Assembly (NCBI RefSeq): GCF_041886205.1
Contig: NZ_CP169029.1
DNA: 64,000 bases
Strand: one strand, 5' to 3'
Origin: Escherichia coli
GTDB lineage: Bacteria > Pseudomonadota > Gammaproteobacteria > Enterobacterales > Enterobacteriaceae
The notes beneath the pieces were generated by a model that saw only the letters and a list, made by a program, of their open reading frames with translations, was not told the origin of the DNA and made no database searches. Numbering within the stretch: the first letter of the stretch is position 1; every line of letters begins with the position of its first letter. Made by a program: the position numbers and the translations under genes. This document shows positions 22,627-36,582 of the stretch, one piece after another.

Positions 22627-23385
22627 ATGGATGCACTACAAACACAAACTGTTAATAGTACAACCGCGCCGCAGCCCAACTACATTCCGGGGCTGATTGC
22701 GGTGGTCGGGTGTGATGGCACCGGTAAATCCACACTGACCACTGACCTGGTGAAATCGCTGCAACAACACTGGCAAACTGAGCGGCGCTATCTGGGGCTG
22801 CTCTCCGGCGAAGACGGCGACAAAATCAAACGATTGCCGTTGGTTGGCGTCTGGCTGGAACGGCGACTGGCGGCCAAATCCTCGAAAACCCAAAGCATGA
22901 AAACCAAATCTCCGGCGCTATGGGCGGCGGTGATTATGTACTGCTTTTCGCTGCGAAGAATGGCGAATCTACGCAAGGTTCAGCGACTGGCGCAAAGTGG
23001 CGTTCTGGTGGTCAGCGATCGCTTCCCGCAGGCTGAAATTTCGGGCTTTTATTATGACGGACCGGGGATCGGCGTCGAACGTGCGACCGGGAAAATCAGC
23101 ATGTTTCTGGCGCAGCGCGAACGGCGTTTATACCAAAAAATGGCGCAATACCGTCCTGAATTAATCATTCGTTTGGGGATTGATATTGATACTGCCATCT
23201 CCCGCAAGCCTGACCATGACTATGCCGAGCTGCAGGACAAAATCGGCGTCATGTCGACGATTGGCTATAACGGCACAAAAATTCTTGAGATTGATGCCAG
23301 AGCGCCCTACAGCGAAGTGCTGGAACAGGCACAGAAGGCGGTTTCTCTGGTTGCCATCGTTTCTGACCGCCGAAGTTTAACTTAA
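22627..23385 (+). CDS. yghR: P-loop NTPase, nucleotide-kinase-like, YghR
   Basis: 252 aa, Walker A GCDGTGKST and SDRFPQ. Confidence 0.85.
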   Translation: MDALQTQTVNSTTAPQPNYIPGLIAVVGCDGTGKSTLTTDLVKSLQQHWQTERRYLGLLSGEDGDKIKRLPLVGVWLERRLAAKSSKTQSMKTKSPALWAAVIMYCFSLRRMANLRKVQRLAQSGVLVVSDRFPQAEISGFYYDGPGIGVERATGKISMFLAQRERRLYQKMAQYRPELIIRLGIDIDTAISRKPDHDYAELQDKIGVMSTIGYNGTKILEIDARAPYSEVLEQAQKAVSLVAIVSDRRSLT

Positions 23386-23430
23386 GGCTGGCGGGATACT
23401 TTTTACTATCAACGATAAGGTCAGGCTGAA

Positions 23431-24780
23431 TTGGCGGGTTTTAACATCAAACATTGGTTTGCAGATGGCGCGTTTCGCACCATTATTCGCAATAGCGCCT
23501 GGTTAGGCTCCAGTAATGTCGTGAGCGCCTTGCTGGGGCTGTTGGCGCTCTCGTGTGCCGGTAAAGGGATGACGCCCGCCATGTTTGGCGTACTGGTGAT
23601 TGTGCAATCGTACGCCAAGTCGATCAGCGATTTTATTAAGTTTCAGACATGGCAGTTGGTGGTGCAGTACGGAACGCCAGCCTTGACCAACAATAATCCG
23701 CAGCAATTTCGCAATGTCGTCTCATTTTCCTTCTCGCTGGATATCGTCAGCGGCGCGGTGGCGATTGTCGGCGGCATTGCCTTACTACCATTCCTTTCCC
23801 ATTCATTAGGTCTGGATGACCAAAGTTTTTGGCTGGCGGCGCTGTATTGCACGCTCATTCCTTCAATGGCTTCCTCCACGCCGACCGGCATTCTGCGTGC
23901 GGTAGATCGCTTCGATTTAATTGCTGTACAGCAGGCGACGAAACCTTTTCTGCGCGCAGCGGGGAGCGTCGTAGCCTGGTATTTTGACTTTGGTTTTGCG
24001 GGTTTTGTTATTGCCTGGTACGTGTCGAATCTGGTTGGCGGCACCATGTACTGGTGGTTTGCAGCGCGCGAATTACGCCGCAGAAATATCCATAATGCCT
24101 TCAAATTGAATCTGTTTGAGTCTGCCCGACACATCAAAGGCGCGTGGAGTTTTGTCTGGTCAACCAACATTGCCCACTCCATCTGGTCGGCGCGTAACTC
24201 GTGCAGCACAGTGCTGGTGGGGATCGTGTTAGGACCCGCTGCCGCCGGGTTATTTAAAATCGCCATGACATTCTTCGACGCCGCCGGAACGCCAGCGGGT
24301 TTGCTGGGTAAAAGTTTTTACCCAGAGGTGATGCGTTTAGATCCGCGCACCACCAGACCGTGGTTGTTAGGTGTGAAGTCCGGTTTACTGGCGGGCGGAA
24401 TCGGTATTCTGGTGGCGCTCGCGGTGTTGATCGCCGGCAAGTCGCTCATTTCGCTGGTGTTTGGCGTTAAGTATCTCGAAGCGTATGACCTGATTCAGGT
24501 GATGCTGGGCGCAATTGTGATTTCGATGCTGGGTTTCCCGCAGGAGTCATTGCTATTGATGGCGGGAAAACAGCGCGCTTTTCTCGTGGCGCAAACCATC
24601 GCCTCAATCGGCTACATCGTATTGCTGTTCATGTTCTGTCATCTGTTTGGTGTGCTGGGAGCAGCGTTTGCCTACTTCGGTGGGCAATGTCTGGATGTGG
24701 TGCTCTCGTTAATTCCAACTTTAAAGGCATTTTTTCAGCGTCATTCCTTGCTTTATAACGCAGCCGGAGAGAAATCCTGA
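23431..24780 (+). CDS. yghQ: Polytopic inner membrane protein YghQ, MOP/Wzx-flippase-like, full-length form
   Basis: 449-aa ORF with many predicted transmembrane segments. A TTG start is implied at 23431; an internal Met (…MFGVLVIVQSYAKS…) is the alternative. The stop overlaps the next start (TGATG). Confidence 0.7.
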   Translation: MAGFNIKHWFADGAFRTIIRNSAWLGSSNVVSALLGLLALSCAGKGMTPAMFGVLVIVQSYAKSISDFIKFQTWQLVVQYGTPALTNNNPQQFRNVVSFSFSLDIVSGAVAIVGGIALLPFLSHSLGLDDQSFWLAALYCTLIPSMASSTPTGILRAVDRFDLIAVQQATKPFLRAAGSVVAWYFDFGFAGFVIAWYVSNLVGGTMYWWFAARELRRRNIHNAFKLNLFESARHIKGAWSFVWSTNIAHSIWSARNSCSTVLVGIVLGPAAAGLFKIAMTFFDAAGTPAGLLGKSFYPEVMRLDPRTTRPWLLGVKSGLLAGGIGILVALAVLIAGKSLISLVFGVKYLEAYDLIQVMLGAIVISMLGFPQESLLLMAGKQRAFLVAQTIASIGYIVLLFMFCHLFGVLGAAFAYFGGQCLDVVLSLIPTLKAFFQRHSLLYNAAGEKS

Positions 24781-25604
24781 TGATGAGAAAATATTTCCCG
24801 CTTGAGGCGAGCGAGCGTCTATTTGTTGCGATTGAGGAAGATGATGTCGTTGATGCCCAGGTCAGTTTGCCGCCGACTATTGCACTAAGTTGTACCACCG
24901 AAATCATCCATGATAATTACGCGTTATGCCTGCAGTTCTGGCTCAATGGCGTTAATCGTCAGGAGTTACTGCGTTTAATTCGCAAACAGACCAAAGGCGA
25001 TGAGCTGACGACAGACGAGCGCAAACAGTTTAAATACATGCGAGCGCGCTACAAGCATCTGCGTTTTGCGCAACGGCTATATTTAAAGAAGCATCAGGCC
25101 GGATTTTTATTCGGCAAAACGACCGTTTTTCTGGGGCGTTTTCAGGACGGCTTTCGTAACGGTAAGAAAAATATTGTGTCGTATTACGGTAACCTGTTAC
25201 GGATTTATTTAAGCTCTCCGGTCTGGTCGTTGGTGAACTATTCATTACGCCATAGCCAGTTAGAAAGCGTAAGCGGTTTTATTGCCTATCGGCAAAAGCA
25301 AATGCATGCCCTGAAAGAGATAATTGCCAAACCGCGACTAACCGGCAGGGAATTTCATGATGTGCGAAAAATCATCAGCCAGCAGGTTTCTTATTACGAC
25401 ACCTTAAGATCGCTTGATCCTGAAAATAAAGAGGCGTTACAGGTTTCCCGCTTCCTCGCCGCCATTAATGGCCTGATGGGGGATAAACACGACGACATGG
25501 TGGCGGATGATATGGAAAACCGCCAGTCGTATGATGCACCGGTGGCGCTGGATAGCGATATTCGCCAGCGCTTAGAGCTGCTGATTTCGCGTTTTCCGCT
25601 ATAA
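24780..25604 (+). CDS. Hypothetical soluble protein, 274 aa, translationally coupled to yghQ
   Basis: Clean ORF MMRKYFPLEASERLFVAIEEDDVVDAQ…; no motif I recognise. Confidence 0.6.
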   Translation: MMRKYFPLEASERLFVAIEEDDVVDAQVSLPPTIALSCTTEIIHDNYALCLQFWLNGVNRQELLRLIRKQTKGDELTTDERKQFKYMRARYKHLRFAQRLYLKKHQAGFLFGKTTVFLGRFQDGFRNGKKNIVSYYGNLLRIYLSSPVWSLVNYSLRHSQLESVSGFIAYRQKQMHALKEIIAKPRLTGREFHDVRKIISQQVSYYDTLRSLDPENKEALQVSRFLAAINGLMGDKHDDMVADDMENRQSYDAPVALDSDIRQRLELLISRFPL

Positions 25605-25612
25605 CCGGAGCA

Positions 25613-26176
25613 ATGATGTCATCTCGTTTGATTATTGCGCTGATTATCATGCTCTTAGCCCCGGGTGCGCAGGCACACAATTTCGTCACTGGCAAAACGG
25701 TTACCCCTGTTTATATTCAGGAAGGCGGCGAGCTGCTTCTGAATAGCGACGACGAAATTCACTACCAAAAGTGGAAAAGCACACAATTGGCGGGAAAAGT
25801 CCGCATTATTCAGTATATCGCCGGGCGTAAGTCGGCGAAGAAAAAGAACTCACTGTTAATTAAAGCGGTTGAAGCGGCAAACTTTCCGCAGGATCGTTTT
25901 CAGCCCACCACCATTGTGAACACCGATGATGCCATCTTTGGTACTGGCTATTTTGTTGTTGGCAAAATCGAAAAAAATAAACGCCGCTATCCGTGGGCGC
26001 AATTCGTTATTGACGGCAATGGACTGGGACGCATTGCCTGGCGCTTGCCGGAGCAGAGTTCAACCATTCTGGTGCTGAATAAAGCCGGGCAAATTCAGTG
26101 GGCAAAGGACGGCAGCCTGACGCCGGAAGAGGTAGATCATGTCATTGCGCTGGCGCAGAAGCTGATCAATGAATAA
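25613..26176 (+). CDS. YtfJ-family periplasmic protein (signal peptide)
   Basis: 187 aa with an N-terminal signal peptide (MMSSRLIIALIIMLLAPGAQA) and YtfJ-like blocks (…LAGKVRIIQYIAGR…TTIVNTDDAI…QWAKDGSLTPEEV…). Confidence 0.65.
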   Translation: MMSSRLIIALIIMLLAPGAQAHNFVTGKTVTPVYIQEGGELLLNSDDEIHYQKWKSTQLAGKVRIIQYIAGRKSAKKKNSLLIKAVEAANFPQDRFQPTTIVNTDDAIFGTGYFVVGKIEKNKRRYPWAQFVIDGNGLGRIAWRLPEQSSTILVLNKAGQIQWAKDGSLTPEEVDHVIALAQKLINE

Positions 26177-26205
26177 AAATTCAAAGGATTGAGGGCGTTA
26201 GTGAG

Positions 26206-27276
26206 ATGAAGCTGGTTGAACACTACATCATGCGTGGTACGCGCCGTCTGGTGCTGATTATCGTCGGTTTTCTGATCTTTATTTTCGCCAGCTACTCCGC
26301 ACAGCGTTATCTGACCGAAGCGGCAAATGGGACATTAGCTCTTGATGTTGTGCTGGATATCGTTTTCTACAAAGTGCTGATTGCACTGGAGATGTTGTTA
26401 CCTGTTGGTCTGTATGTGTCAGTTGGCGTGACGCTAGGGCAGATGTATACCGACTCGGAAATTACCGCTATCTCTGCGGCGGGGGGCAGTCCGGGACGCT
26501 TGTACAAAGCCGTTCTTTATCTGGCGATACCGCTAAGTATTTTTGTCACCCTTCTGTCGATGTATGGTCGTCCGTGGGCTTATGCGCAGATTTATCAACT
26601 GGAGCAACAGTCGCAGTCGGAGCTGGATGTTCGCCAGTTGCGGGCAAAGAAATTTAACACTAACGATAACGGACGAATGATCCTTTCGCAGACGGTTGAT
26701 CAGGATAATAATCGCCTGACTGACGCGCTGATTTATACTTCTACTGCCAATCGAACCCGCATTTTCCGCGCCCGTTCGGTTGATGTGGTTGACCCATCAC
26801 CCGAGAAACCGACCGTTATGTTGCATAACGGGACCGCCTATCTTCTCGATCATCAGGGGCGTGACGACAACGAACAGATCTACCGTAATCTGCAATTACA
26901 TCTGAATCCGCTGGATCAAAGCCCTAACGTCAAACGCAAAGCAAAATCGGTCACGGAGCTGGCGCGCTCCGCCTTTCCTGCCGATCATGCCGAACTGCAA
27001 TGGCGACAAAGCCGTGGCCTGACAGCATTGTTGATGGCGCTGCTGGCCATTTCATTAAGTCGGGTAAAACTGCGGCAAGGGCGATTTTCAACATTATTGC
27101 CACTGACGTTGCTGTTTATTGCCATTTTTTATGGCGGCGACGTCTGCCGTACGCTGGTGGCTAACGGCGCGATTCCCCTCATTCCTGGTTTGTGGTTAGT
27201 ACCCGGACTCATGCTAATGGGCCTGCTGATGCTGGTCGCACGCGACTTCTCTTTGCTGCAGAAATTTTCCCGATGA
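26206..27276 (+). CDS. YjgP/YjgQ-family permease, LptF-like
   Basis: 356 aa with the LptF/LptG topology: N-terminal transmembrane helices, a central periplasmic beta-rich region, C-terminal helices; begins MKLVEHYIMRGTRRLVLIIVGFLIF. Confidence 0.65.
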   Translation: MKLVEHYIMRGTRRLVLIIVGFLIFIFASYSAQRYLTEAANGTLALDVVLDIVFYKVLIALEMLLPVGLYVSVGVTLGQMYTDSEITAISAAGGSPGRLYKAVLYLAIPLSIFVTLLSMYGRPWAYAQIYQLEQQSQSELDVRQLRAKKFNTNDNGRMILSQTVDQDNNRLTDALIYTSTANRTRIFRARSVDVVDPSPEKPTVMLHNGTAYLLDHQGRDDNEQIYRNLQLHLNPLDQSPNVKRKAKSVTELARSAFPADHAELQWRQSRGLTALLMALLAISLSRVKLRQGRFSTLLPLTLLFIAIFYGGDVCRTLVANGAIPLIPGLWLVPGLMLMGLLMLVARDFSLLQKFSR

Positions 27277-28352
27277 ATGTTTTCAGTCGCTATTTAATCC
27301 GTCATCTCTTTCTCGGTTTTGCCGCCGCCGCAGGGCTATTGCTGCCGCTTTTTACCACCTTCAACCTGATTAACGAACTGGATGATGTCAGCCCGGGCGG
27401 TTATCGCTGGACTCAGGCGGTGCTGGTGGTGCTAATGACCTTACCGCGCACACTGGTCGAACTTTCGCCATTTATCGCCTTATTGGGAGGGATTGTCGGC
27501 CTGGGGCAGTTATCGAAAAACAGTGAGCTTACCGCCATTCGCAGCATGGGGTTTTCTATCTTCCGTATTGCACTGGTGGCACTGGTTGCAGGGATATTGT
27601 GGACTGTTTCGTTAGGCGCGATAGATGAGTGGGTGGCGTCGCCATTGCAGCAACAGGCGTTGCAAATCAAATCGACCGCCACCGCGTTGGGGGAGGACGA
27701 TGACATTACCGGCAATATGCTGTGGGCCAGGCGTGGTAATGAATTTGTGACGGTGAAATCGCTGAACGAGCAGGGCCAGCCGGTGGGCGTGGAGATTTTT
27801 CATTATCGTGACGATCTCTCGCTCGAATCCTACATTTATGCACGCAGTGCCACCATTAAAGACGACAAAATGTGGATCCTGCATGGTGTGAATCATAAAA
27901 AATGGCTTAACGGTAAAGAAACGCTGGAAACATCAGATAATCTTGCCTGGCAATCTGCCTTCACCAGTATGGATCTTGAAGAGTTATCGATGCCGGGGAA
28001 TACTTTTTCTGTCTGTCAGCTTAATCATTACATCCATTATTTGCAGGAAACCGGGCAACCCAGCAGCGAATACCGCCTTGCACTGTGGGAAAAACTGGGG
28101 CAACCCATCCTGACCCTGGCGATGATTTTGCTGGCTGTACCGTTTACCTTTAGCGCCCCGCGCTCGCCAGGGATGGGTAGCCGTCTCGCTGTAGGCGTCA
28201 TCGTTGGCTTACTCACCTGGATCAGCTATCAAATCATGGTCAATCTGGGATTGCTATTTGCGTTAAGCGCACCTGTTACCGCGCTCGGTTTACCGATAGC
28301 GTTTGTGCTGGTGGCGTTGAGCCTGGTGTATTGGTATGACAGACAACATTAA
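27273..28352 (+). CDS. YjgP/YjgQ-family permease, LptG-like
   Basis: MNVFSRYLIRHLFLGFAAAAGLLLPLFTTFNLINELDDV… closely resembles the LptG N-terminus. ATG at 27273 overlaps the upstream stop (ATGA); the track ORF starts earlier at 27192. Confidence 0.65.
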   Translation: MNVFSRYLIRHLFLGFAAAAGLLLPLFTTFNLINELDDVSPGGYRWTQAVLVVLMTLPRTLVELSPFIALLGGIVGLGQLSKNSELTAIRSMGFSIFRIALVALVAGILWTVSLGAIDEWVASPLQQQALQIKSTATALGEDDDITGNMLWARRGNEFVTVKSLNEQGQPVGVEIFHYRDDLSLESYIYARSATIKDDKMWILHGVNHKKWLNGKETLETSDNLAWQSAFTSMDLEELSMPGNTFSVCQLNHYIHYLQETGQPSSEYRLALWEKLGQPILTLAMILLAVPFTFSAPRSPGMGSRLAVGVIVGLLTWISYQIMVNLGLLFALSAPVTALGLPIAFVLVALSLVYWYDRQH

Positions 28353-28386
28353 ACCCGCCGTGGCGCAACACCACGACGGGCTCACA

Positions 28387-29559
28387 TTACTGCTTCAGAG
28401 TAGCAAATGTCTGAATGATGGCATCGATTTGCTCACGACTGTGGGCAGCGTTTACGCTACAGCGCAGCAGCGTAATGCCCGCAGGCGCGGCAGGCGGCAG
28501 GATAAGATTCACATACACGCCCAGCGAGATAAGCTCGCGCCAGATGCGCAACCCTTCCTCTTTCGAACCGATTATTACCGGCACTACCGGGCTAATATGT
28601 GAACTTAACTCATAACCCAGTTTTTGCAGACCGTCATACAGATGGTTGGCGTTATCCATCAGCTTTTGCCGCAGCTCTGGTTGTGAGGCAATGGTTCTTA
28701 ACGATGAGCGCACGGTCGCAATGCAGGACGGAGAAGGAGAGGCGGTAAAAATATACGGGCGGCTGCCGTAGCGCAGCACTTCCATCGCTTCCGAACCGAC
28801 AGCAAAACCGCCAATCGAGGCCAGACTTTTACTGAAAGTACCAACGATAATATCCACATCATCTTCAACGCCGACAGCTTCAGCCAGTCCACGCCCCGTT
28901 GCACCTAACACGCCAAACGAATGCGCTTCATCGACAATCAAATAACCACCGAGACGACGTTTGATATCAACAATTTCCGCCAGCGGCGCAACGTCACCGA
29001 GCATGCTGTAGATGCCCTCAACGATGATAATCGCCTCTTTCGCCCGTTCACCGAGGCGAACCATGCGCCGTTCCAGATCTTTAGCATCGTTATGGCGGAA
29101 ACGAATAATTTCCGCGCCACCGAGAGAACAGGCGTCATAAATACTGGCGTGGCTGTCGGCATCCAGTAACACCACGGCGTTATGGTCGGCAAGTGCGCTG
29201 ATGACGCCTAAATTAGCGGTATAACCGGTTGAAAAAACGATAGCGGTAGGGCGATTGAAAAACTCGGCAATCTCTTTCTCTAACGCCAGGTGCGGCGCAT
29301 AACTGCCGTTTGCCATACGAGAACCGGTGGTGCCGGTGCCTTGGGCCGCTAACGCTGCCTGACCTTCGGCGATGGCATCATGATTAAAGGTTAAACCGAG
29401 ATAATTATTGGTCCCGGCCAGAATCACTTTTTTATTGCCGATCCGACCTTCGGTGGCGGAATACACTTCATCAATACAGGTGCCAAACGGTGTTAACCCG
29501 TTGTCACTAAATTGCAGTCGCTCGCCAGCAAGGCGCGCATATTTATCGTATAGCCCCAT
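28387..29559 (-). CDS. PLP-dependent alpha-oxoamine synthase (BioF/KBL/serine-palmitoyltransferase family)
   Basis: 390 aa with the class-II aminotransferase fold and a GTFSKS PLP-lysine motif. Which subfamily it belongs to cannot be decided by eye. Confidence 0.8.
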   Translation of the reverse strand: MGLYDKYARLAGERLQFSDNGLTPFGTCIDEVYSATEGRIGNKKVILAGTNNYLGLTFNHDAIAEGQAALAAQGTGTTGSRMANGSYAPHLALEKEIAEFFNRPTAIVFSTGYTANLGVISALADHNAVVLLDADSHASIYDACSLGGAEIIRFRHNDAKDLERRMVRLGERAKEAIIIVEGIYSMLGDVAPLAEIVDIKRRLGGYLIVDEAHSFGVLGATGRGLAEAVGVEDDVDIIVGTFSKSLASIGGFAVGSEAMEVLRYGSRPYIFTASPSPSCIATVRSSLRTIASQPELRQKLMDNANHLYDGLQKLGYELSSHISPVVPVIIGSKEEGLRIWRELISLGVYVNLILPPAAPAGITLLRCSVNAAHSREQIDAIIQTFATLKQ

Positions 29560-29807
29560 TATTTATTCTCCAGCCATGGAAGTAGAGCTTCCATTAATTG
29601 CGCAGGGGTTTTGACATCCAGCAGAATATTAATAGGAATGGAAATATCGAATCTGTCTTCCAGCATCATTAAGAGATCCATCACTTTGATCGACTCCAGG
29701 CCAAGATCGTTGACGAGATCGCTGTCGGGCTTAATTTCCACACCGTTTTCGACCAAATCCTGTAAACAGGAAAGGATGTAATCCATTACTATTTCACGAT
29801 TTACCAT
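29559..29807 (-). CDS. Dedicated acyl carrier protein
   Basis: 82 aa, acidic, with a phosphopantetheine-site-like DLGLESIKVMDLLMMLEDRFD. Its stop overlaps the synthase start. Confidence 0.75.
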   Translation of the reverse strand: MVNREIVMDYILSCLQDLVENGVEIKPDSDLVNDLGLESIKVMDLLMMLEDRFDISIPINILLDVKTPAQLMEALLPWLENK

Positions 29808-29838
29808 AGAAACGTTAACACACCTTTAAACAAGACAA

Positions 29839-30753
29839 TCAAAATAGCCCGTTGCGTAATGCGTGTTCCAGGCTAATCCCGGGAAACCAATTAATATCTT
29901 CAGAAATACGGTTATTATTTGCCGACCAGTCGGCGTGGGTTAATTCACGAATTTTCGAGCGGGTCAGCATAGGTTCTTTACCTGCCAGGCGACTCAACGC
30001 AGTACTGATATCCGCAAGGCAGGTGAGTACCGGCAGAGGAATGCCAACCATCCGCACAGAACCACAACGGGCTTCGGCGGCAAGCTGTCGTACGCGTTGC
30101 CAGTCATAGCCGCCAGCGACGCCATCGCATAATTCATAGGTTTGCGTCTGTACAGTTTCGGCGCTTAACCACTGACCCACGGCTTGCGCGAAATCGGTGA
30201 CGTGCAGGAAAGAGAGCTGTGTATCTGGCGCACCAAGTCGTGGCAGCAGGCCGCGCAGCATCCAGTCAAACAGCGGTTTTAACTCTTTATCGCCTGGACC
30301 ATACACGGCTGTCGGGCGAAAAACGCCCAGCGTAATTTCATCAGCCATTGCAGTCAGCCGTTGTTCGGCGACGTGTTTGGAATTTGCGTACCAGGAGAGT
30401 TCGGGATGGCGCGCCGCCAGCGAAGAGATAAACAGAAAACGTTGGCAAAAGCCGCTCTCTTTTGCCGCTTGCATCAGGCGCAGGCTGCCGTCAACGTTAC
30501 AGCGGGTAAAAATCTCTTCTTTGTGCCCGCGCACTTGCCCGGCGCAATGGACCACCGCGCTGGCTCCGGCAACCAGTTCGCTAAGTGAATGAGTATCTTC
30601 CAGCGAACCGCGCACCCAGATGAGATTGTCATTGACGTGAGCGCGGGCAGTACGCGTCAATGCGCGAACGTGAAAGCCGCGGGCGAGCAGGTTATCGATA
30701 ATATATTTACCGATAAACCCGGTAGCGCCCGTCACCGCGACAGTTTGATTCAT
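29839..30753 (-). CDS. NAD(P)-dependent epimerase/dehydratase-family reductase (extended SDR)
   Basis: 304 aa with N-terminal VTGATGFIGKYII Rossmann motif. Its start overlaps the stop of the upstream ligase gene. Confidence 0.8.
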   Translation of the reverse strand: MNQTVAVTGATGFIGKYIIDNLLARGFHVRALTRTARAHVNDNLIWVRGSLEDTHSLSELVAGASAVVHCAGQVRGHKEEIFTRCNVDGSLRLMQAAKESGFCQRFLFISSLAARHPELSWYANSKHVAEQRLTAMADEITLGVFRPTAVYGPGDKELKPLFDWMLRGLLPRLGAPDTQLSFLHVTDFAQAVGQWLSAETVQTQTYELCDGVAGGYDWQRVRQLAAEARCGSVRMVGIPLPVLTCLADISTALSRLAGKEPMLTRSKIRELTHADWSANNNRISEDINWFPGISLEHALRNGLF

Positions 30754-32471
30754 GCCAGGGATTCCTGCACATGAAGGCTTTCAGCATAAGCCTTCTGATA
30801 ACGTTTTTTCGCTTCCGCATGGGCAGGCTTGCCGGAGGACGTTCGGGGAATACTGTGGGGCGGCAACAGATCGATAGCCGCGGTCACGCCAAATTCGCTT
30901 TGGATCCGTGCTGCCAGCGCGTGGATAAGCTGCCCGCGACGTTCTTCATCGCTGATCCGACACTGGATCTGCAAAATGATTTTTTCCTGGGCGGTAACAA
31001 AAGCAATCGCATCGCCAGAATGAATTTCCGGTTCCTGTTCCGCAATATATTCAATATCCTGCGGCCAGATATTACGGCCACGAATAATAATCAGATCTTT
31101 AATGCGTCCGGTGACATACAGATAACCGTCCAGCAGATAACCGAGGTCGCCGGTGTCTAACCAGCCCGTCGCGGCAATCTCGTCTTGCGAAGCCTGGTCG
31201 CCAAAGTAACCGCTCATCAGGCTAGGGCCGGAGATGCAAATATGGCCTACCACACGTTCCGCGACAGGTATACCTGCTTCATTGCGGATTTCAATGCCAT
31301 GTTCCGGCAACGCTTTACCGCAGTTGACGAAAGTCGATACGGCGCGTGTTTCAGCACCCGGCGCGACGGCTTTACCGTGGTATTCGAGGATGTCGCGATC
31401 CACTTCGTTAACCATAACCCCGGAGGTTTCATCAGAGAAGCTGACAGCCAGCGCATTTTCTGCCAGTCCGTAGCACGGCATGAAAGTTTTATCGTCAAAG
31501 TTAACCTGACGGAAACATTCAGCGAATTGATGGAGTTGTTCTGCGGAGATGGGTTCTGCACCAATACCAGCGACGCGCCAGGAGGAAAGATCCAGTTCTG
31601 CGAGATCTTTTTCATTCACGCGGCGCTGGCACAATTCATAGCCAAACGGCGGCGCAACGGAAACGGTGCCGCGATTTTTACTGATCAATTTAAGCCATTG
31701 CAGAGGACGCATGGCAAAATCCTGAGTGCGCAAATAATCTACTGAAAGCTGCGTGGCGACGGGGGTCAGGAGAAAGCCGACCAGTCCCATATCATGGTAG
31801 AAAGGCAGCCAGGAGACGCAGCGGTCGCCAGGGCGTAATTTAATGCCATCGTGGCTTATAGCACGTAGATTAGCCATCACTTCGCGATGGGTGATAATGA
31901 CGCCACGGGGAAAACGGGTGCTGCCGGAGGTGTATTGGAGGTAGGCGATATCGTCCGGAACTGGGCGCTGGAGCGCAACATCGGCTTCCGGTAATGCCTT
32001 AAACCAGGCGTGGCTTAAAACATGTAATTCGGGATTGTTATGCGTCGCAGCATTGACCAGCGGTAACCACTCATCACCAGTGATAATGGCTGCGGGCTGG
32101 CAACTTGCCAGTAAACCCTGCAGTTTGGCGCTCCAGGAATCCCGCTGACCGACGCCCATTGGAATCGCCAACGGGACGGCGACTAAGCCGGCATACTGGC
32201 AGGCAAAAAAAGCCTCTACGAACCCGCTACTGGTTTCGGCAATCAGCGCCACGCGATCGCCTTTTTTCAGGTTCAGCGATAACAACCGCTTCGCACCAGC
32301 TTCGGCACGCGCTTTTAACGTCTGATATTCCAGTTGATCTTCAAGTTGGCAACGTCTGTCATAAAAATTCATTCCATCGCTACTCAGAGCGGCGTAGTCC
32401 AAAGCATCAACCAGCGTTGGAAAATCGGCATAGCGCATAGGTAGGGAATGCGTAAAGATTTTATTAGACAT
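30750..32471 (-). CDS. Fatty-acyl-AMP ligase / acyl-ACP synthetase-like adenylating enzyme
   Basis: AMP-binding signature YTSGSTRFPRGV plus the …TGDLGY… and GRIKDLIIIRGRNIWPQDIE blocks. Start taken at the internal Met MSNKIFTHSL of ORF 30750-32498. Confidence 0.8.
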   Translation of the reverse strand: MSNKIFTHSLPMRYADFPTLVDALDYAALSSDGMNFYDRRCQLEDQLEYQTLKARAEAGAKRLLSLNLKKGDRVALIAETSSGFVEAFFACQYAGLVAVPLAIPMGVGQRDSWSAKLQGLLASCQPAAIITGDEWLPLVNAATHNNPELHVLSHAWFKALPEADVALQRPVPDDIAYLQYTSGSTRFPRGVIITHREVMANLRAISHDGIKLRPGDRCVSWLPFYHDMGLVGFLLTPVATQLSVDYLRTQDFAMRPLQWLKLISKNRGTVSVAPPFGYELCQRRVNEKDLAELDLSSWRVAGIGAEPISAEQLHQFAECFRQVNFDDKTFMPCYGLAENALAVSFSDETSGVMVNEVDRDILEYHGKAVAPGAETRAVSTFVNCGKALPEHGIEIRNEAGIPVAERVVGHICISGPSLMSGYFGDQASQDEIAATGWLDTGDLGYLLDGYLYVTGRIKDLIIIRGRNIWPQDIEYIAEQEPEIHSGDAIAFVTAQEKIILQIQCRISDEERRGQLIHALAARIQSEFGVTAAIDLLPPHSIPRTSSGKPAHAEAKKRYQKAYAESLHVQESLA

Positions 32472-32842
32472 ATACACCACGAAAAAATTGGATATCAAAA
32501 ATAAAATGACAATAATGCGGTGGATTATATAGGCATAAAAGATAAATGAGATAGTATTTTCATCAGTGTGAAAATGAACATTGATTTATATAATGAGTTT
32601 GAGTTTTTTTGTTTTTATTGTGAATGATATTTAATTTATGAATATATTAAGAAGAAGCCTTGTCCGGTCGCCTTAAATCGACAAAAGGCATTGTGGCGCT
32701 TCTGTGTAGTCGCTGACCCTATCGTAATCATTAATAAATACTATTTATTCGTCGTTTGTATCCATTGGGTTGATTATTAAGGTGCCGTTCGTTGCTGTTG
32801 CAACCTGTTTGTCACCGTTAATTATTTGTTACCCACAGAACT

Positions 32843-33985
32843 ATGGAATGCGATCTGCTGATGATTAAAATTGAAAAAGTAATTAATAAAAATGACCTTA
32901 AGGCATTTATCGCTTTTCCGTCATCACTTTATCCCGACGATCCAAACTGGATACCCCCTTTATTCATTGAACGCAACGAGCATTTGTCTGCGAAAAATCC
33001 GGGGACGGACCATATCATCTGGCAGGCGTGGGTGGCAAAAAAAGCGGGGCAGATAGTTGGGCGTATTACCGCGCAAATAGATACCTTGCACCGCGAGCGT
33101 TACGGCAAAGATACCGGTCATTTCGGCATGATTGACGCCATTGATGATCCGCAGGTTTTTGCCGCGTTGTTTGGCGCAGCGGAAGCGTGGTTGAAGTCAC
33201 AAGGTGCAAGTAAGATCAGCGGTCCTTTCAGCCTGAATATCAATCAGGAAAGCGGATTACTGATTGAAGGTTTCGATACACCACCCTGTGCGATGATGCC
33301 GCACGGTAAACCGTGGTATGCCGCGCATATTGAACAATTGGGTTATCACAAAGGCATTGATTTACTGGCGTGGTGGATGCAGCGAACCGATCTCACTTTC
33401 TCTCCGGCGCTAAAAAAACTGATGGATCAGGTGCGTAAGAAGGTGACCATTCGCTGCATCAATCGCCAGCGGTTTGCCGAAGAGATGCAGATCCTGCGTG
33501 AGATTTTCAACTCTGGCTGGCAGCACAACTGGGGATTTGTGCCGTTTACCGAACATGAATTCGCGACCATGGGCGATCAACTTAAATATCTGGTGCCGGA
33601 CGATATGATCTACATCGCTGAGATTGATTCTGCACCCTGCGCGTTTATTGTCGGCTTGCCAAACATCAACGAGGCGATTGCCGATCTGAACGGATCGCTC
33701 TTTCCCTTCGGCTGGGCAAAATTGCTGTGGCGTTTGAAAGTCAGCGGTGTGCGAACTGCGCGAGTGCCGCTGATGGGCGTGCGGGACGAGTATCAGTTCA
33801 GCCGCATCGGCCCGGTGATTGCGCTGTTATTGATTGAAGCCTTACGCGATCCGTTTGCCCGCCGGAAGATCGATGCGCTGGAGATGTCATGGCTCCTCGA
33901 AACCAATACAGGCATGAATAACATGCTGGAACGCATTGGGGCAGAGCCGTACAAGCGTTACCGATTGTATGAAAAGCAAATTTAA
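32843..33985 (+). CDS. yghO: YghO, GNAT-like putative N-acyltransferase, apparently intact
   Basis: 380-aa ORF divergent from the lipid operon. The GNAT-like assignment is tentative and from memory of the family; the true start may be the downstream Met (MIKIEKV). Confidence 0.6.
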   Translation: MECDLLMIKIEKVINKNDLKAFIAFPSSLYPDDPNWIPPLFIERNEHLSAKNPGTDHIIWQAWVAKKAGQIVGRITAQIDTLHRERYGKDTGHFGMIDAIDDPQVFAALFGAAEAWLKSQGASKISGPFSLNINQESGLLIEGFDTPPCAMMPHGKPWYAAHIEQLGYHKGIDLLAWWMQRTDLTFSPALKKLMDQVRKKVTIRCINRQRFAEEMQILREIFNSGWQHNWGFVPFTEHEFATMGDQLKYLVPDDMIYIAEIDSAPCAFIVGLPNINEAIADLNGSLFPFGWAKLLWRLKVSGVRTARVPLMGVRDEYQFSRIGPVIALLLIEALRDPFARRKIDALEMSWLLETNTGMNNMLERIGAEPYKRYRLYEKQI

Positions 33986-34061
33986 TACCAGATCCTGTTA
34001 AGCGCAGGGGCGGTCCCATCGCCCCTCGGGGAAAGGGTTAGGGTGAGGGGGAAAACTCTGC

Positions 34062-34832
34062 TCACATTCCCACCTTGTTCATCTCCAGCGGCACCGCCGA
34101 GCGAATCAAATGGTGGCCTTCCAGCTCGATATCGTGGAGATTCTTTTTCACGGTCCGCACATGATCGCGTGCTGCGCGCTGGGCGACGTGCGGCAGCCGC
34201 TGCAACACCGCGTTGTAGATCCGCGCATGCTGGCGATCGATCTGCTTTTTTTGCTGTGGTCGATGGTAGAGATTATTTACGCTGGCAAACACTGAATTAA
34301 ACATCAGATCGGTCAATGATTGCAGCGTAAACACCAGCACCTGATTGTGAGAAGCCTGACAAATGGCGAGATGGAAAGCGTGATCCAACTGAGCATGTTC
34401 GATCAGCGAAATCTCTTTGTTGTTCTCACTGGCGGCGAGCATTTTTTCATAACAGCGGGTTATCACAACAAAATCAGCCTGGGTTCCCAGCGTTGCCGCA
34501 AGCCTTGCCGATTCGCCCTCCAGCAATGCGCGAACGTCGAGCAGATCGTACAGCGTTCGCGGCTGCGTGCTGAACAGATGAATTAGCGGGCTGGTGTCCT
34601 GCACCCGATTAAGCCGTGCGACACGAGAATCGCGACCCTGCGCTGTTTCAATAATCCCGCGCCCGCGCAGCACGGTCAGTCCTTCACGCAGTGCGGAGCG
34701 TGAGAAGCCGAGCTTTTCACACAGTCGACGTTCCGAGGGAAGCGGCTGACCGACCTTCAGTACGCCGTCGATAATTAACCGTTCGATACTCTCTGCAACC
34801 ACTTCGCAAATAGGGCGACGTTCATCTTTCAT
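34062..34832 (-). CDS. glcC: GntR/FadR-family glycolate regulator GlcC
   Basis: Start at the internal Met MKDERRPICEVVAESIERLIIDGVLKVGQPLPSERRLCEKLGFSRSALREGL (winged HTH) of ORF 34062-34901. Confidence 0.85.
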   Translation of the reverse strand: MKDERRPICEVVAESIERLIIDGVLKVGQPLPSERRLCEKLGFSRSALREGLTVLRGRGIIETAQGRDSRVARLNRVQDTSPLIHLFSTQPRTLYDLLDVRALLEGESARLAATLGTQADFVVITRCYEKMLAASENNKEISLIEHAQLDHAFHLAICQASHNQVLVFTLQSLTDLMFNSVFASVNNLYHRPQQKKQIDRQHARIYNAVLQRLPHVAQRAARDHVRTVKKNLHDIELEGHHLIRSAVPLEMNKVGM

Positions 34833-35082
34833 TCCCGGACCTCGTACACAGGTAGGACCAATTTTTCTGTTCTTAACTCGCAAAACACGCACATCACGCA
34901 AGTGATTATGTTACATCGATTTAACATTAAGTTAACCAAGACAAGGTCACAGAGCTGGAAAAAAAATGGTCTGACCGGTAGCTAAAGAGATAGACGAAAA
35001 CGAAAAGCCCGCTTAATAACTGTTCACAGAAGCAGCGCGCAAAAATCAGCTGCCACACAACACAACAAAGCGAAGCCTACTC
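34833..35082. promoter_or_regulatory. Divergent glcC / glcDEFGBA control region
   Basis: Intergenic gap between divergent genes. GlcC-dependent activation of the glc operon is known in E. coli; sites were not verified by eye. Confidence 0.4.
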
Positions 35083-36582
35083 ATGAGCATCTTGTACGAA
35101 GAGCGTCTTGATGGCGCTTTACCCGATGTCGACCGCACATCGGTACTGATGGCACTGCGTGAGCATGTCCCTGGACTTGAGATCCTGCATACCGATGAGG
35201 AGATCATTCCTTACGAGTGTGACGGGTTGAGCGCGTATCGCACGCGTCCATTACTGGTTGTTCTGCCTAAGCAGATGGAACAGGTGACAGCGATTCTGGC
35301 TGTCTGCCATCGCCTGCGTGTACCGGTGGTGACCCGTGGTGCAGGCACCGGGCTTTCTGGTGGCGCGCTGCCGCTGGAAAAAGGTGTGTTGTTGGTGATG
35401 GCGCGCTTTAAAGAGATCCTCGACATTAACCCCGTTGGTCGCCGCGCGCGCGTGCAGCCAGGCGTGCGTAACCTGGCGATCTCCCAGGCCGTTGCACCGC
35501 ATAATCTCTACTACGCACCGGACCCTTCCTCACAAATCGCCTGTTCCATTGGCGGCAACGTGGCAGAAAATGCCGGCGGCGTCCACTGCCTGAAATATGG
35601 TCTGACCGTACATAACCTGCTGAAAATTGAAGTGCAAACGCTGGACGGCGAGGCGCTGACGCTGGGATCGGACGCGCTGGATTCACCTGGTTTTGACCTG
35701 CTGGCGCTGTTCACCGGATCGGAAGGTATGCTCGGCGTGACCACCGAAGTGACGGTAAAACTGCTGCCGAAGCCGCCCGTGGCGCGGGTTCTGTTAGCCA
35801 GCTTTGACTCGGTAGAAAAAGCCGGACTTGCAGTTGGTGACATCATCGCCAATGGCATTATCCCCGGCGGGCTGGAGATGATGGATAACCTGTCGATCCG
35901 CGCGGCGGAAGATTTTATTCATGCCGGTTATCCCGTCGACGCCGAAGCAATTTTGTTATGCGAGCTGGACGGCGTGGAGTCTGACGTACAGGAAGACTGC
36001 GAGCGGGTTAACGACATCTTGTTGAAAGCGGGCGCGACTGACGTCCGTCTGGCACAGGACGAAGCAGAGCGCGTACGTTTCTGGGCCGGTCGCAAAAATG
36101 CGTTCCCGGCGGTAGGACGTATCTCCCCGGATTACTACTGCATGGATGGCACCATCCCGCGTCGCGCCCTGCCTGGCGTACTGGAAGGCATTGCCCGTTT
36201 ATCGCAGCAATATGATTTACGTGTTGCCAACGTCTTTCATGCCGGAGATGGCAACATGCACCCGTTAATCCTTTTCGATGCCAACGAACCCGGTGAATTT
36301 GCCCGCGCGGAAGAGCTGGGTGGGAAGATCCTCGAACTCTGCGTTGAAGTTGGCGGCAGCATCAGTGGGGAACATGGCATCGGGCGAGAAAAAATCAATC
36401 AAATGTGCGCCCAGTTCAACATCGATGAAATCACGACCTTCCATGCGGTCAAGGCGGCGTTTGACCCCGATGGTTTGCTGAACCCTGGGAAAAACATTCC
36501 CACGCTACACCGCTGTGCTGAATTTGGTGCCATGCATGTGCATCACGGTCATTTACCTTTCCCTGAACTGGAGCGTTTCTGA
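35083..36582 (+). CDS. glcD: Glycolate oxidase FAD-binding subunit GlcD
   Basis: 499 aa, FAD-linked oxidase domain. Confidence 0.9.
   Translation: MSILYEERLDGALPDVDRTSVLMALREHVPGLEILHTDEEIIPYECDGLSAYRTRPLLVVLPKQMEQVTAILAVCHRLRVPVVTRGAGTGLSGGALPLEKGVLLVMARFKEILDINPVGRRARVQPGVRNLAISQAVAPHNLYYAPDPSSQIACSIGGNVAENAGGVHCLKYGLTVHNLLKIEVQTLDGEALTLGSDALDSPGFDLLALFTGSEGMLGVTTEVTVKLLPKPPVARVLLASFDSVEKAGLAVGDIIANGIIPGGLEMMDNLSIRAAEDFIHAGYPVDAEAILLCELDGVESDVQEDCERVNDILLKAGATDVRLAQDEAERVRFWAGRKNAFPAVGRISPDYYCMDGTIPRRALPGVLEGIARLSQQYDLRVANVFHAGDGNMHPLILFDANEPGEFARAEELGGKILELCVEVGGSISGEHGIGREKINQMCAQFNIDEITTFHAVKAAFDPDGLLNPGKNIPTLHRCAEFGAMHVHHGHLPFPELERF

Follow-up and report, generated by a model that had tools for sequence, protein, structure and literature searches.

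The ceramide genes of Caulobacter crescentus are CC_1165 (aasR), CC_1164 (cerR/epi), CC_1163 (acpR), CC_1162 (spt) and CC_1154 (bcerS/aca). Published comparisons with Escherichia coli BL21(DE3) gave 44% identity between CC_1154 and ECD_02850 (E = 1e-107) and 34% between CC_1164 and ECD_02852 (E = 7e-38). The BL21(DE3) genes ECD_02850-ECD_02854 are the same locus as that analyzed here and were tested by Padilla-Gómez et al. 2022 (PMC9386255), where yghO (ECD_02850) is listed as an acyl-CoA N-acyltransferase. The carrier protein ECD_02853 was labelled with beta-alanine, i.e. 4'-phosphopantetheinylated, and on overexpression the serine palmitoyltransferase (SPT) gave, from L-[14C]serine, a product migrating like 3-oxo-sphinganine; for the empty-vector lanes of BL21(DE3), with the native locus present, sphingoid compounds were not reported (PMC9386255). 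EcFAAL loads EcACP in vitro (PMC8460268), and Caulobacter CerR has been described as NDUFA9-like (PMC11087976). In Sphingomonadaceae aasR sits at a remote genomic site (PMC9386255). Caulobacter LptF2/G2 bind LptB and are required when sphingolipids are made, and the UTI89 sphingolipid operons are drawn beside LptF/LptG-paralogue loci in Fig. 2B of the same 2026 preprint (10.64898/2026.04.12.717747).

The system is thus already known from publications, has been tested in part and carries a RefSeq name. Since the E. coli ceramide pathway had been described before, no new kind of system is added here. An earlier reading of this DNA, made from the letters alone (the sequence-only reading), had held that the locus had escaped study and that no lipid product was assigned to it. 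Neither statement stood, since the locus is published and named and 3-oxo-sphinganine formation has been reported for the BL21(DE3) proteins (PMC9386255).

Layout of the locus

The window, i.e. the whole 64-kb stretch of E. coli DNA that was analyzed, contained the following features.

21016-23385, yghT (-), yghS (+) and yghR (+): P-loop kinase-like paralogues, weak dTMP-kinase-like matches
23431-24780 (+), yghQ: MOP-flippase-like, weak NCBIfam MOP flippase match
24780-25604 (+): 274-aa protein, no Pfam or NCBIfam match
25613-26176 (+): YtfJ-family secreted protein, YtfJ model 214 bits
26206-27276 (+), lptF2: second-copy LPS-export permease, NCBIfam LptF 314.3 bits, above cut-off
27273-28352 (+), lptG2: second-copy LPS-export permease, NCBIfam LptG 305.9 bits, above cut-off
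28350-28384: stem-loop of 16 pairs (9 G-C) between the convergent lptG2 and spt, terminator-like in the scan
28387-29559 (-), spt: serine palmitoyltransferase (PLP-dependent alpha-oxoamine synthase), 390 aa, NCBIfam NF047599
29559-29807 (-), acpR: dedicated acyl carrier protein, 82 aa, Ser39 in DLGLES
29839-30753 (-), cerR (epi): extended SDR, putative 3-keto reductase (sphingoid base or ceramide), 304 aa
30750-32438 (-), aasR: fatty acyl-AMP ligase / acyl-AcpR synthetase, 562 aa, NCBIfam NF006624
32439-32842: AT-rich divergent intergenic region between aasR and yghO, presumed promoters
32843-33985 (+), yghO: bacterial ceramide synthase (bCerS/Aca) homologue, predicted tandem GNAT, 380 aa as annotated

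All five synthesis ORFs were found where the sequence-only reading had placed them, as four tight minus-strand genes with a divergent yghO, and both of the gene overlaps it had described were present. The ligase stop and reductase start share 4 nt (ATGA at 30753-30750, minus strand) and the carrier-protein stop and spt start share 1 nt (TAATG at 29561-29557), while the reductase and carrier-protein genes are spaced by 31 nt. The length of AasR is counted from the RefSeq start, and further in-frame starts lie upstream (ATG 32471, TTG 32498). The gap between aasR and yghO is 404 bp, with unremarkable repeats and a G+C content of 34% (500-bp composition window, 32500-32999). A promoter and terminator scan of 28200-34200 returned sites no more commonly than shuffled sequence did, save for the hairpin at 28350-28384, and therefore no promoter was mapped between aasR and yghO. 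The hairpin is likely to be the terminator for both lptG2 and spt. A search of 20000-36000 against Rfam gave no match.

The operon ORFs are real genes and not chance ORFs, as judged from family matches, RefSeq annotation and dN/dS. All five genes are annotated in RefSeq genomes, the synthase under the gene name spt. Against BL21(DE3), from which the proteins differ by strain-level substitutions only (96.7-99.0% identity), dN/dS was 0.075 for spt, 0.139 for the SDR gene and 0.174 for the ligase gene. The carrier-protein gene yielded no ratio because only 1 nt differs from BL21(DE3); in the eight island genes that did, values ranged from 0.04 to 0.23.

Assignment of the proteins and comparison with Caulobacter

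Spt scored 599.7 bits against the NCBIfam SPT equivalog NF047599 (cut-off 500). It was below cut-off for bioF (333.8 vs 426.45), KBL (296.3 vs 460), ALAS and CqsA, all non-SPT family models failing. In profile comparison with the SPT, KBL, BioF and ALAS clades, as the sequence-only reading had proposed, the synthase fell with SPT. Assignment to biotin or threonine metabolism, as BioF or KBL, was ruled out by the curated cut-offs. The closest solved structures were the soluble SPTs of Sphingomonas paucimobilis and S. wittichii (2jg2, 2x8u; ~375 bits), with 2jg2 best at 375.6 bits; cysteate acyltransferase (203 bits) was among the next best, KBL scored ~200 bits and BioF 177, and solved ALAS structures likewise ranked far below SPT. 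In common with Sphingomonas SPT, Spt keeps the catalytic H159, D231 and H234, the PLP lysine K265 and R390 (S. paucimobilis numbering), whereas R378, which we take to contact the serine carboxylate, aligns with Leu. The sphingolipid and sulfonolipid synthases of Bacteroidetes have alpha-oxoamine synthase chemistry in common with Spt but match it far more weakly, and the NCBIfam model SerpalmtaseCFB gave 340.5 bits (cut-off 640). In the Bacteroidetes systems the acyl donor is presumably acyl-CoA, with no AcpR/AasR pair present. Spt is 99.0% identical to the BL21(DE3) enzyme assayed in PMC9386255.

Matches of AcpR to ACP families were all sub-threshold (best 35.5 bits, cut-off 71), and it was therefore taken to be a divergent ACP. 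Its gene lies directly upstream of spt and bears the phosphopantetheine-attachment serine, its homologues bear Pfam PP-binding, and it is 98.8% identical to ECD_02853, which carries 4'-phosphopantetheine (PMC9386255). AasR scored 869.8 bits against the fatty acyl-AMP ligase model NF006624 (cut-off 600), matched the crystallised E. coli FAAL (PDB 3PBK) over its full length at 1248.8 bits, and is 97.0% identical to BL21 ECD_02851. CerR carries an N-terminal TGATGFIG (GxxGxxG) and a YANSK (YxxxK) motif, and NDUFA9 / complex I 39-kDa subunits made up most of its best solved relatives, as in the published description of Caulobacter CerR (PMC11087976). A CerR-type, NDUFA9-like SDR reductase is thus present, with predicted activity. 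The dedicated ACP, the fatty-acyl-AMP-ligase-like adenylating enzyme and the SDR reductase named in the sequence-only reading were all recovered in this way.

Searches of Pfam, NCBIfam and PDB with the YghO sequence gave no match, and its fold was therefore settled by structure prediction. The AlphaFold2 model (pLDDT 95.2) had as its best solved matches the tandem GNATs 2wpw, 7q3a, 5kf1 and MshD (E 1e-16 to 1e-12). This confident tandem GNAT model agrees with the GNAT-like assignment made from sequence, as does the similarity of YghO (44% identity, 374 aa) to the homologue that occupies the bCerS position in a Caulobacter sp. (locus L085). YghO here and in BL21(DE3) is one RefSeq protein accession. 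Synteny was sampled in 53 loci of at least 15 kb from other species, each with a YghO relative, drawn from alpha-, beta-, gamma- and deltaproteobacteria and Nitrospira; spt, aasR, cerR, lptF2 or lptG2 lay within 10 kb of the relative in 49 of the 53, and relatives of lptF2/lptG2 adjoined it in 37. YghO is predicted to act as a bCerS-type N-acyltransferase, homologous to CC_1154.

Five protein families are common to the C. crescentus ceramide genes and the E. coli locus. The Caulobacter-like composition and gene order named in the sequence-only reading were borne out by the Caulobacter sp., in which aasR-cerR-acpR-spt has the order and orientation found in E. coli. Identities to that locus were 53% for Spt, 44% for YghO, 38% for CerR (303 aa) and 38% for AcpR, and its Spt also hits NF047599 (681 bits). 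LptF/LptG paralogues lie within the locus in Caulobacter and E. coli alike. The N-acyltransferase gene is immediately divergent from the operon in E. coli, whereas in Caulobacter it lies ~7 kb away. Homologues of the Caulobacter head-group genes (YegS-like lipid kinase, CDP-alcohol-transferase-like and others) are absent from the window, for which reason any native head group may differ from that of Caulobacter.

Unlike Caulobacter, E. coli has yghQ, the gene for the 274-aa protein, the YtfJ-like gene and yghR/S/T nearby. The first three form a tightly packed group that precedes lptF2 on its strand. In Serratia and Pluralibacter, where the whole module is kept in differing flanking contexts, they likewise adjoin the spt operon. 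The 274-aa protein gave a confident helical model with no significant PDB structure match; a weak CHAD-like resemblance was to 6qv5 (E 0.16, probability 0.97, TM 0.46). Sequence searches of the PDB with the YtfJ-like protein and YghR gave no match. Relatives of yghR/S/T adjoin spt in Serratia and in a betaproteobacterial MAG (L028; 55-56% identity), a neighbourhood from which these genes possibly belong with the island. By analogy with Caulobacter, lptF2/lptG2 are a candidate sphingolipid exporter.

Proposed pathway and alternative readings

The stretch very probably encodes, in its E. coli form, the dihydroceramide pathway known from proteobacteria (Caulobacter type). AasR would adenylate a long-chain fatty acid and load it onto the 4'-phosphopantetheine arm of AcpR, and Spt would condense acyl-AcpR with L-serine to give 3-oxo-sphinganine and CO2. 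YghO would attach a second, amide-linked acyl chain, and the NDUFA9-like CerR would reduce the 3-keto group. The order of N-acylation and keto reduction is disputed in the literature. YghQ and LptF2/LptG2, powered by the housekeeping LptB, would probably flip the lipid and extract it from the inner membrane. Loading by AasR and condensation by Spt have been demonstrated by experiment for the near-identical BL21(DE3) proteins, and the condensation of acyl-ACP with an amino acid that had been read from the sequence fits the 3-oxo-sphinganine-like product formed by those proteins (PMC9386255). For N-acylation by YghO and reduction by CerR the basis is homology and synteny with Caulobacter genes that have been tested there; export by YghQ/LptF2/LptG2 is inferred from Caulobacter work and the conserved gene neighbourhood.

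Few residue changes switch the substrate of alpha-oxoamine synthases, and use of glycine, alanine or cysteate in place of serine, giving a non-sphingoid aminolipid, would fit the Leu at position 378 and the cysteate acyltransferase among the next-best solved relatives. It is nonetheless extremely improbable, given that Spt lies above the SPT equivalog cut-off and below those of BioF, KBL, ALAS and CqsA, that NF047599 also recognizes the Spt of the Caulobacter sp., and that the 99%-identical BL21 enzyme formed its 3-oxo-sphinganine-like migrating product from L-[14C]serine (PMC9386255). It is also highly improbable that YghO is a mere neighbour with another acyl-transfer role, the operon yielding a free long-chain base and not ceramide. 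The full-length identity of YghO to a Caulobacter sp. homologue that itself adjoins lptF2/lptG2, and the sphingolipid synthesis and export genes beside its relatives in nearly all sampled loci, argue against this, whereas its divergent transcription and its lack of a Pfam, NCBIfam or PDB sequence family would favour it. K-12 has yghO without the operon, which might suggest independence, but there the gene has lost its promoter and first codons at an IS5 junction.

The dihydroceramide pathway could also be competent but cryptic, silent in ordinary growth with no sphingolipid normally made, and persist as a relic or for use in an unknown niche; this is possible, if rather unlikely. Counted by coverage, 4067 of 5426 complete E. 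coli genomes (about 75%) keep the operon at 95-99% identity, dN/dS is low throughout the island and the whole module is kept across Enterobacterales genera. Retention, low dN/dS and cross-genus conservation speak for selection that is still acting, and hence for a pathway in use. Pointing the other way, sphingoid compounds have been reported only on overexpression, though BL21(DE3) has the native locus, and K-12 and some other strains have lost it without obvious harm. The G+C-poor promoter region would be compatible with silencing. The limited literature searched gave no report of a native E. coli sphingolipid or ceramide, including for UTI89, Nissle and uropathogenic strains, and in the literature examined no ceramide or other sphingolipid was reported for the locus driven by its own promoters.

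Loss in K-12 and retention in other E. coli

The sequence-only reading had described the locus as decayed in K-12. The operon is indeed absent from K-12, but its loss was an IS5-associated deletion and not a gradual decay; the junction took the promoter and first codons of yghO and left the rest of that gene in place. Strains besides K-12 have also had the locus deleted.

It is tentatively proposed, as a minority possibility, that most wild E. coli and related Enterobacterales natively make an undescribed sphingolipid. Its head group would be unlike the ceramide phosphoglycerates of Caulobacter, and YghR/S/T and the weakly CHAD-like 274-aa protein might attach or handle it. YghQ and LptB2F2G2 would then export the lipid, possibly partnered in the periplasm by the YtfJ-like protein.

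K-12 deleted this locus, and for this reason E. coli serves as the textbook example of a bacterium that lacks sphingolipids. Of the complete E. coli genomes, about three in four keep the predicted ceramide pathway, under purifying selection and with export genes adjoining.

Gene layout of the operon and its neighbours

The four genes of the spt operon are tightly arranged on the minus strand and yghO is divergent. Features are given by window position.

Features of the island
21016-23385, yghT, yghS and yghR, P-loop kinase-like paralogues flanking the island
23431-24780, yghQ, MOP-flippase-like, island gene
24780-25604, gene for a 274-aa protein, between yghQ and the YtfJ-like gene
25613-26176, gene for a YtfJ-family protein that seems to carry a signal peptide, directly upstream of lptF2-lptG2
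28350-28384, 16-bp hairpin between the convergent genes spt and lptG2
28387-29559, minus strand, spt, alpha-oxoamine synthase, 390 aa
29559-29807, minus strand, acpR, carrier protein, 82 aa
29839-30753, minus strand, cerR, extended SDR, 304 aa
30750-32438 (RefSeq start), minus strand, aasR, adenylating enzyme, 562 aa
32843-33985, plus strand, yghO, 380 aa

The ligase stop overlaps the reductase start in ATGA (30753-30750), and the carrier-protein stop and spt start share one base in TAATG (29561-29557). ORFs and junction sequence bear out the gene content, coordinates and both stop/start overlaps of the earlier sequence-only reading. Upstream of its RefSeq start, aasR has two further in-frame candidate start codons, ATG (32471) and TTG (32498). 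The divergent aasR and yghO are separated by 404 bp, and G+C was 34% in the 500-bp composition window spanning the gap. The annotated yghO start (MECDLLM..., 32843-32863) is six codons 5' of MIKIEKV..., where 374-aa homologues begin, so the true start may be the ATG at 32861.

The family of the 274-aa protein is narrow and chiefly enterobacterial, with 343 hits, and has a large number of invariant His, Arg and Lys positions. Its predicted structure was confident and all-helical, the sole resemblance found being a weak, CHAD-like one (6qv5, YgiF). A YtfJ-like gene is also found upstream of lptF2-lptG2 in Pluralibacter. A role for the YtfJ-like protein as periplasmic partner to the exporter is possible; such partners outside Caulobacter are described as unknown (preprint 10.64898/2026.04.12.717747). 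Relatives of yghR/S/T adjoin spt operons in Serratia (∼70% identity, L004 2379-4980) and in a betaproteobacterial MAG (55-56%, L028 8205-9700), with a weaker relative in Pseudomonas marginalis (37%). This neighbourhood may indicate that yghR/S/T act on the head group or in phosphorylation.

Assignment of the encoded proteins

Spt scored 599.7 bits against NF047599, the NCBIfam equivalog for serine palmitoyltransferase (SPT), passing the cut-off of 500. Scores for BioF (333.8 bits, cut-off 426) and KBL (296.3 bits, cut-off 460) fell below threshold, as did those for ALAS and CqsA. Among solved structures Sphingomonas SPT ranked highest (375 bits), followed by KBL (∼200) and BioF (177). The sequence-only reading had named clustering with BioF or KBL as the result that would count against it; both cut-offs and structure ranking placed the synthase with SPT. 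The SPT residues H159, D231, H234, K265 and R390 are all kept. R378 of S. paucimobilis SPT, which contacts the serine carboxylate, is replaced by Leu in E. coli Spt (NLILPPAAP), with R390 and the other catalytic residues retained. E. coli Spt is reported to be active with serine despite this Leu.

The ligase was identified as a fatty acyl-AMP ligase by NF006624 (869.8 bits) and matched the crystallised E. coli FAAL (PDB 3PBK) over its full length with 1248.8 bits. The closest solved relatives of the reductase were mostly NDUFA9 / 39-kDa complex I subunits, and Caulobacter CerR has been published as NDUFA9-related (PMC11087976). The adenylating ligase and CerR-type SDR proposed from sequence were thus both upheld.

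YghO had no sequence match in Pfam, NCBIfam or PDB. An AlphaFold2 model generated from 51 homologues (pLDDT 95.2) best matched the tandem GNAT acyltransferases 2wpw, 7q3a, 5kf1 and MshD with E values of 1e-16 to 1e-12, in agreement with the GNAT-like assignment made earlier. The family comprises 6466 clusters at 50% identity (E up to 0.001). Some members are much longer (P0121, 784 aa; P0132, 630 aa; P0193, 940 aa), through duplication or fusion with further domains.

Distribution in E. coli and other species

The four-gene operon was present in 4067 of 5426 complete E. coli genomes (≥80% coverage, 95-99% identity) and the wider 9.4-kb stretch in 4058. Among ∼4170 matching places, one was on a plasmid rather than the chromosome, and a few genomes carried two. 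The sequence-only reading had described the locus as decayed in K-12. Its loss was confirmed, by deletion at an IS5 junction and not by gradual decay: in a K-12-type genome IS5 is flanked by yghO and by a yghQ that lacks its C-terminal end, the genes from the 274-aa gene through aasR are all absent, and the yghO match starts ∼40 nt into the ORF. Another strain carries a separate deletion, from pitB into aasR. The eight island genes giving a ratio had dN/dS values of 0.04-0.23 in one pairwise comparison, with BL21(DE3), which fits purifying selection; acpR differed from BL21(DE3) at too few positions to give one.

The YghO alignment was scanned against one genome per species; 80 loci were kept and searched with all island proteins. 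Neighbourhood counts, with a distance limit of 10 kb, are for the 53 loci that reach 15 kb or more. lptF2 or lptG2 lay within this distance of the YghO homologue in 37/53 loci and was commoner than spt (29/53); 49 loci had one or more of spt, aasR, cerR, lptF2 and lptG2. The loci come from Nitrospira and from alpha-, beta-, gamma- and deltaproteobacteria. Serratia liquefaciens and Pluralibacter gergoviae keep yghO with the four-gene operon, in chromosomal surroundings that differ, the former retaining yghQ, the 274-aa gene and P-loop kinase-like genes and the latter the 274-aa gene, YtfJ-like gene, lptF2 and lptG2. In nitrifying betaproteobacteria (L014-L018, L021, L026, L030, L034, L041, L059, L079; Nitrosomonas, Nitrosospira and a Burkholderiales MAG) the YghO homologue precedes lptF2-lptG2 by ∼0.8-1 kb in the same orientation, with spt not within 10 kb. 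Luteibacter yeojuensis (L043) and Dyella sedimenti (L053) carry a homologue with 51% identity to the 274-aa protein ∼10 kb from the YghO homologue; spt, aasR, cerR and lptF2/G2 were not found within 10 kb of the latter.

The Caulobacter sp. locus (L085) has the order aasR-cerR-acpR-spt, followed by ∼5 kb of other genes, an LptF paralogue and a YghO homologue, its aasR-to-spt order matching that proposed in the sequence-only reading. Identities to the window proteins are 53% (Spt), 44% (YghO), 38% (CerR) and 38% (AcpR), and its Spt matches the same NCBIfam SPT model. Among the genes lying between its spt and lptF2 are those for a YegS-like lipid kinase and a CDP-alcohol-transferase-like protein. 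Homologues of these intervening genes were found nowhere in the 64-kb window, so production of Caulobacter-type ceramide phosphoglycerates by E. coli is improbable.

Published work and proposed pathway

The system had already been published, partly characterised and annotated in databases, so the finding is a rediscovery. RefSeq names the synthase in E. coli genomes "spt: serine palmitoyltransferase". The BL21(DE3) genes ECD_02851 (AasR), ECD_02853 (AcpR) and ECD_02854 (SPT) were studied by Padilla-Gómez et al., 2022 (PMC9386255): AcpR takes up beta-alanine and therefore carries 4'-phosphopantetheine, and SPT, assayed with L-[14C]serine, preferred acyl-AcpR over acyl-CoA. ECD_02852 (epi) and yghO ECD_02850 (aca) were listed as the other two dihydroceramide genes, and a cluster of all five was noted for C. 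crescentus and E. coli BL21 only; Table S2 gives 44% identity for CC_1154 and ECD_02850 (E = 1e-107) and 34% for CC_1164 and ECD_02852 (E = 7e-38). Sphingoid compounds were not reported for empty-vector BL21(DE3) lanes (PMC9386255). The window proteins are 96.7-99.0% identical to those of BL21(DE3), with the same YghO RefSeq accession. Patil et al., 2021 (PMC8460268) showed acyl transfer by EcFAAL to EcACP. In Caulobacter, LptF2/LptG2 bind LptB and are required when sphingolipids are made, and Figure 2B of the same 2026 preprint draws sphingolipid operons of E. coli UTI89 (10.64898/2026.04.12.717747). Given this work and annotation, the earlier statements that no product was assigned and that the locus had escaped study were wrong; the overall interpretation as a ceramide-type pathway is supported.

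In the proposed pathway AasR loads a fatty acid onto holo-AcpR and Spt condenses acyl-AcpR with serine to 3-oxo-sphinganine, as shown for near-identical proteins. Homology and synteny suggest that YghO attaches the amide-linked acyl chain and that the 3-keto group is reduced by CerR; which of the two steps comes first is disputed (PMC11087976). Export would proceed via LptF2/LptG2 with housekeeping LptB, possibly preceded by flipping by YghQ, on the basis of the Caulobacter work and the gene neighbourhood. No account of E. coli producing a sphingolipid from its native locus turned up in the literature search, and the remaining interest lies in the native product and the conserved neighbours.
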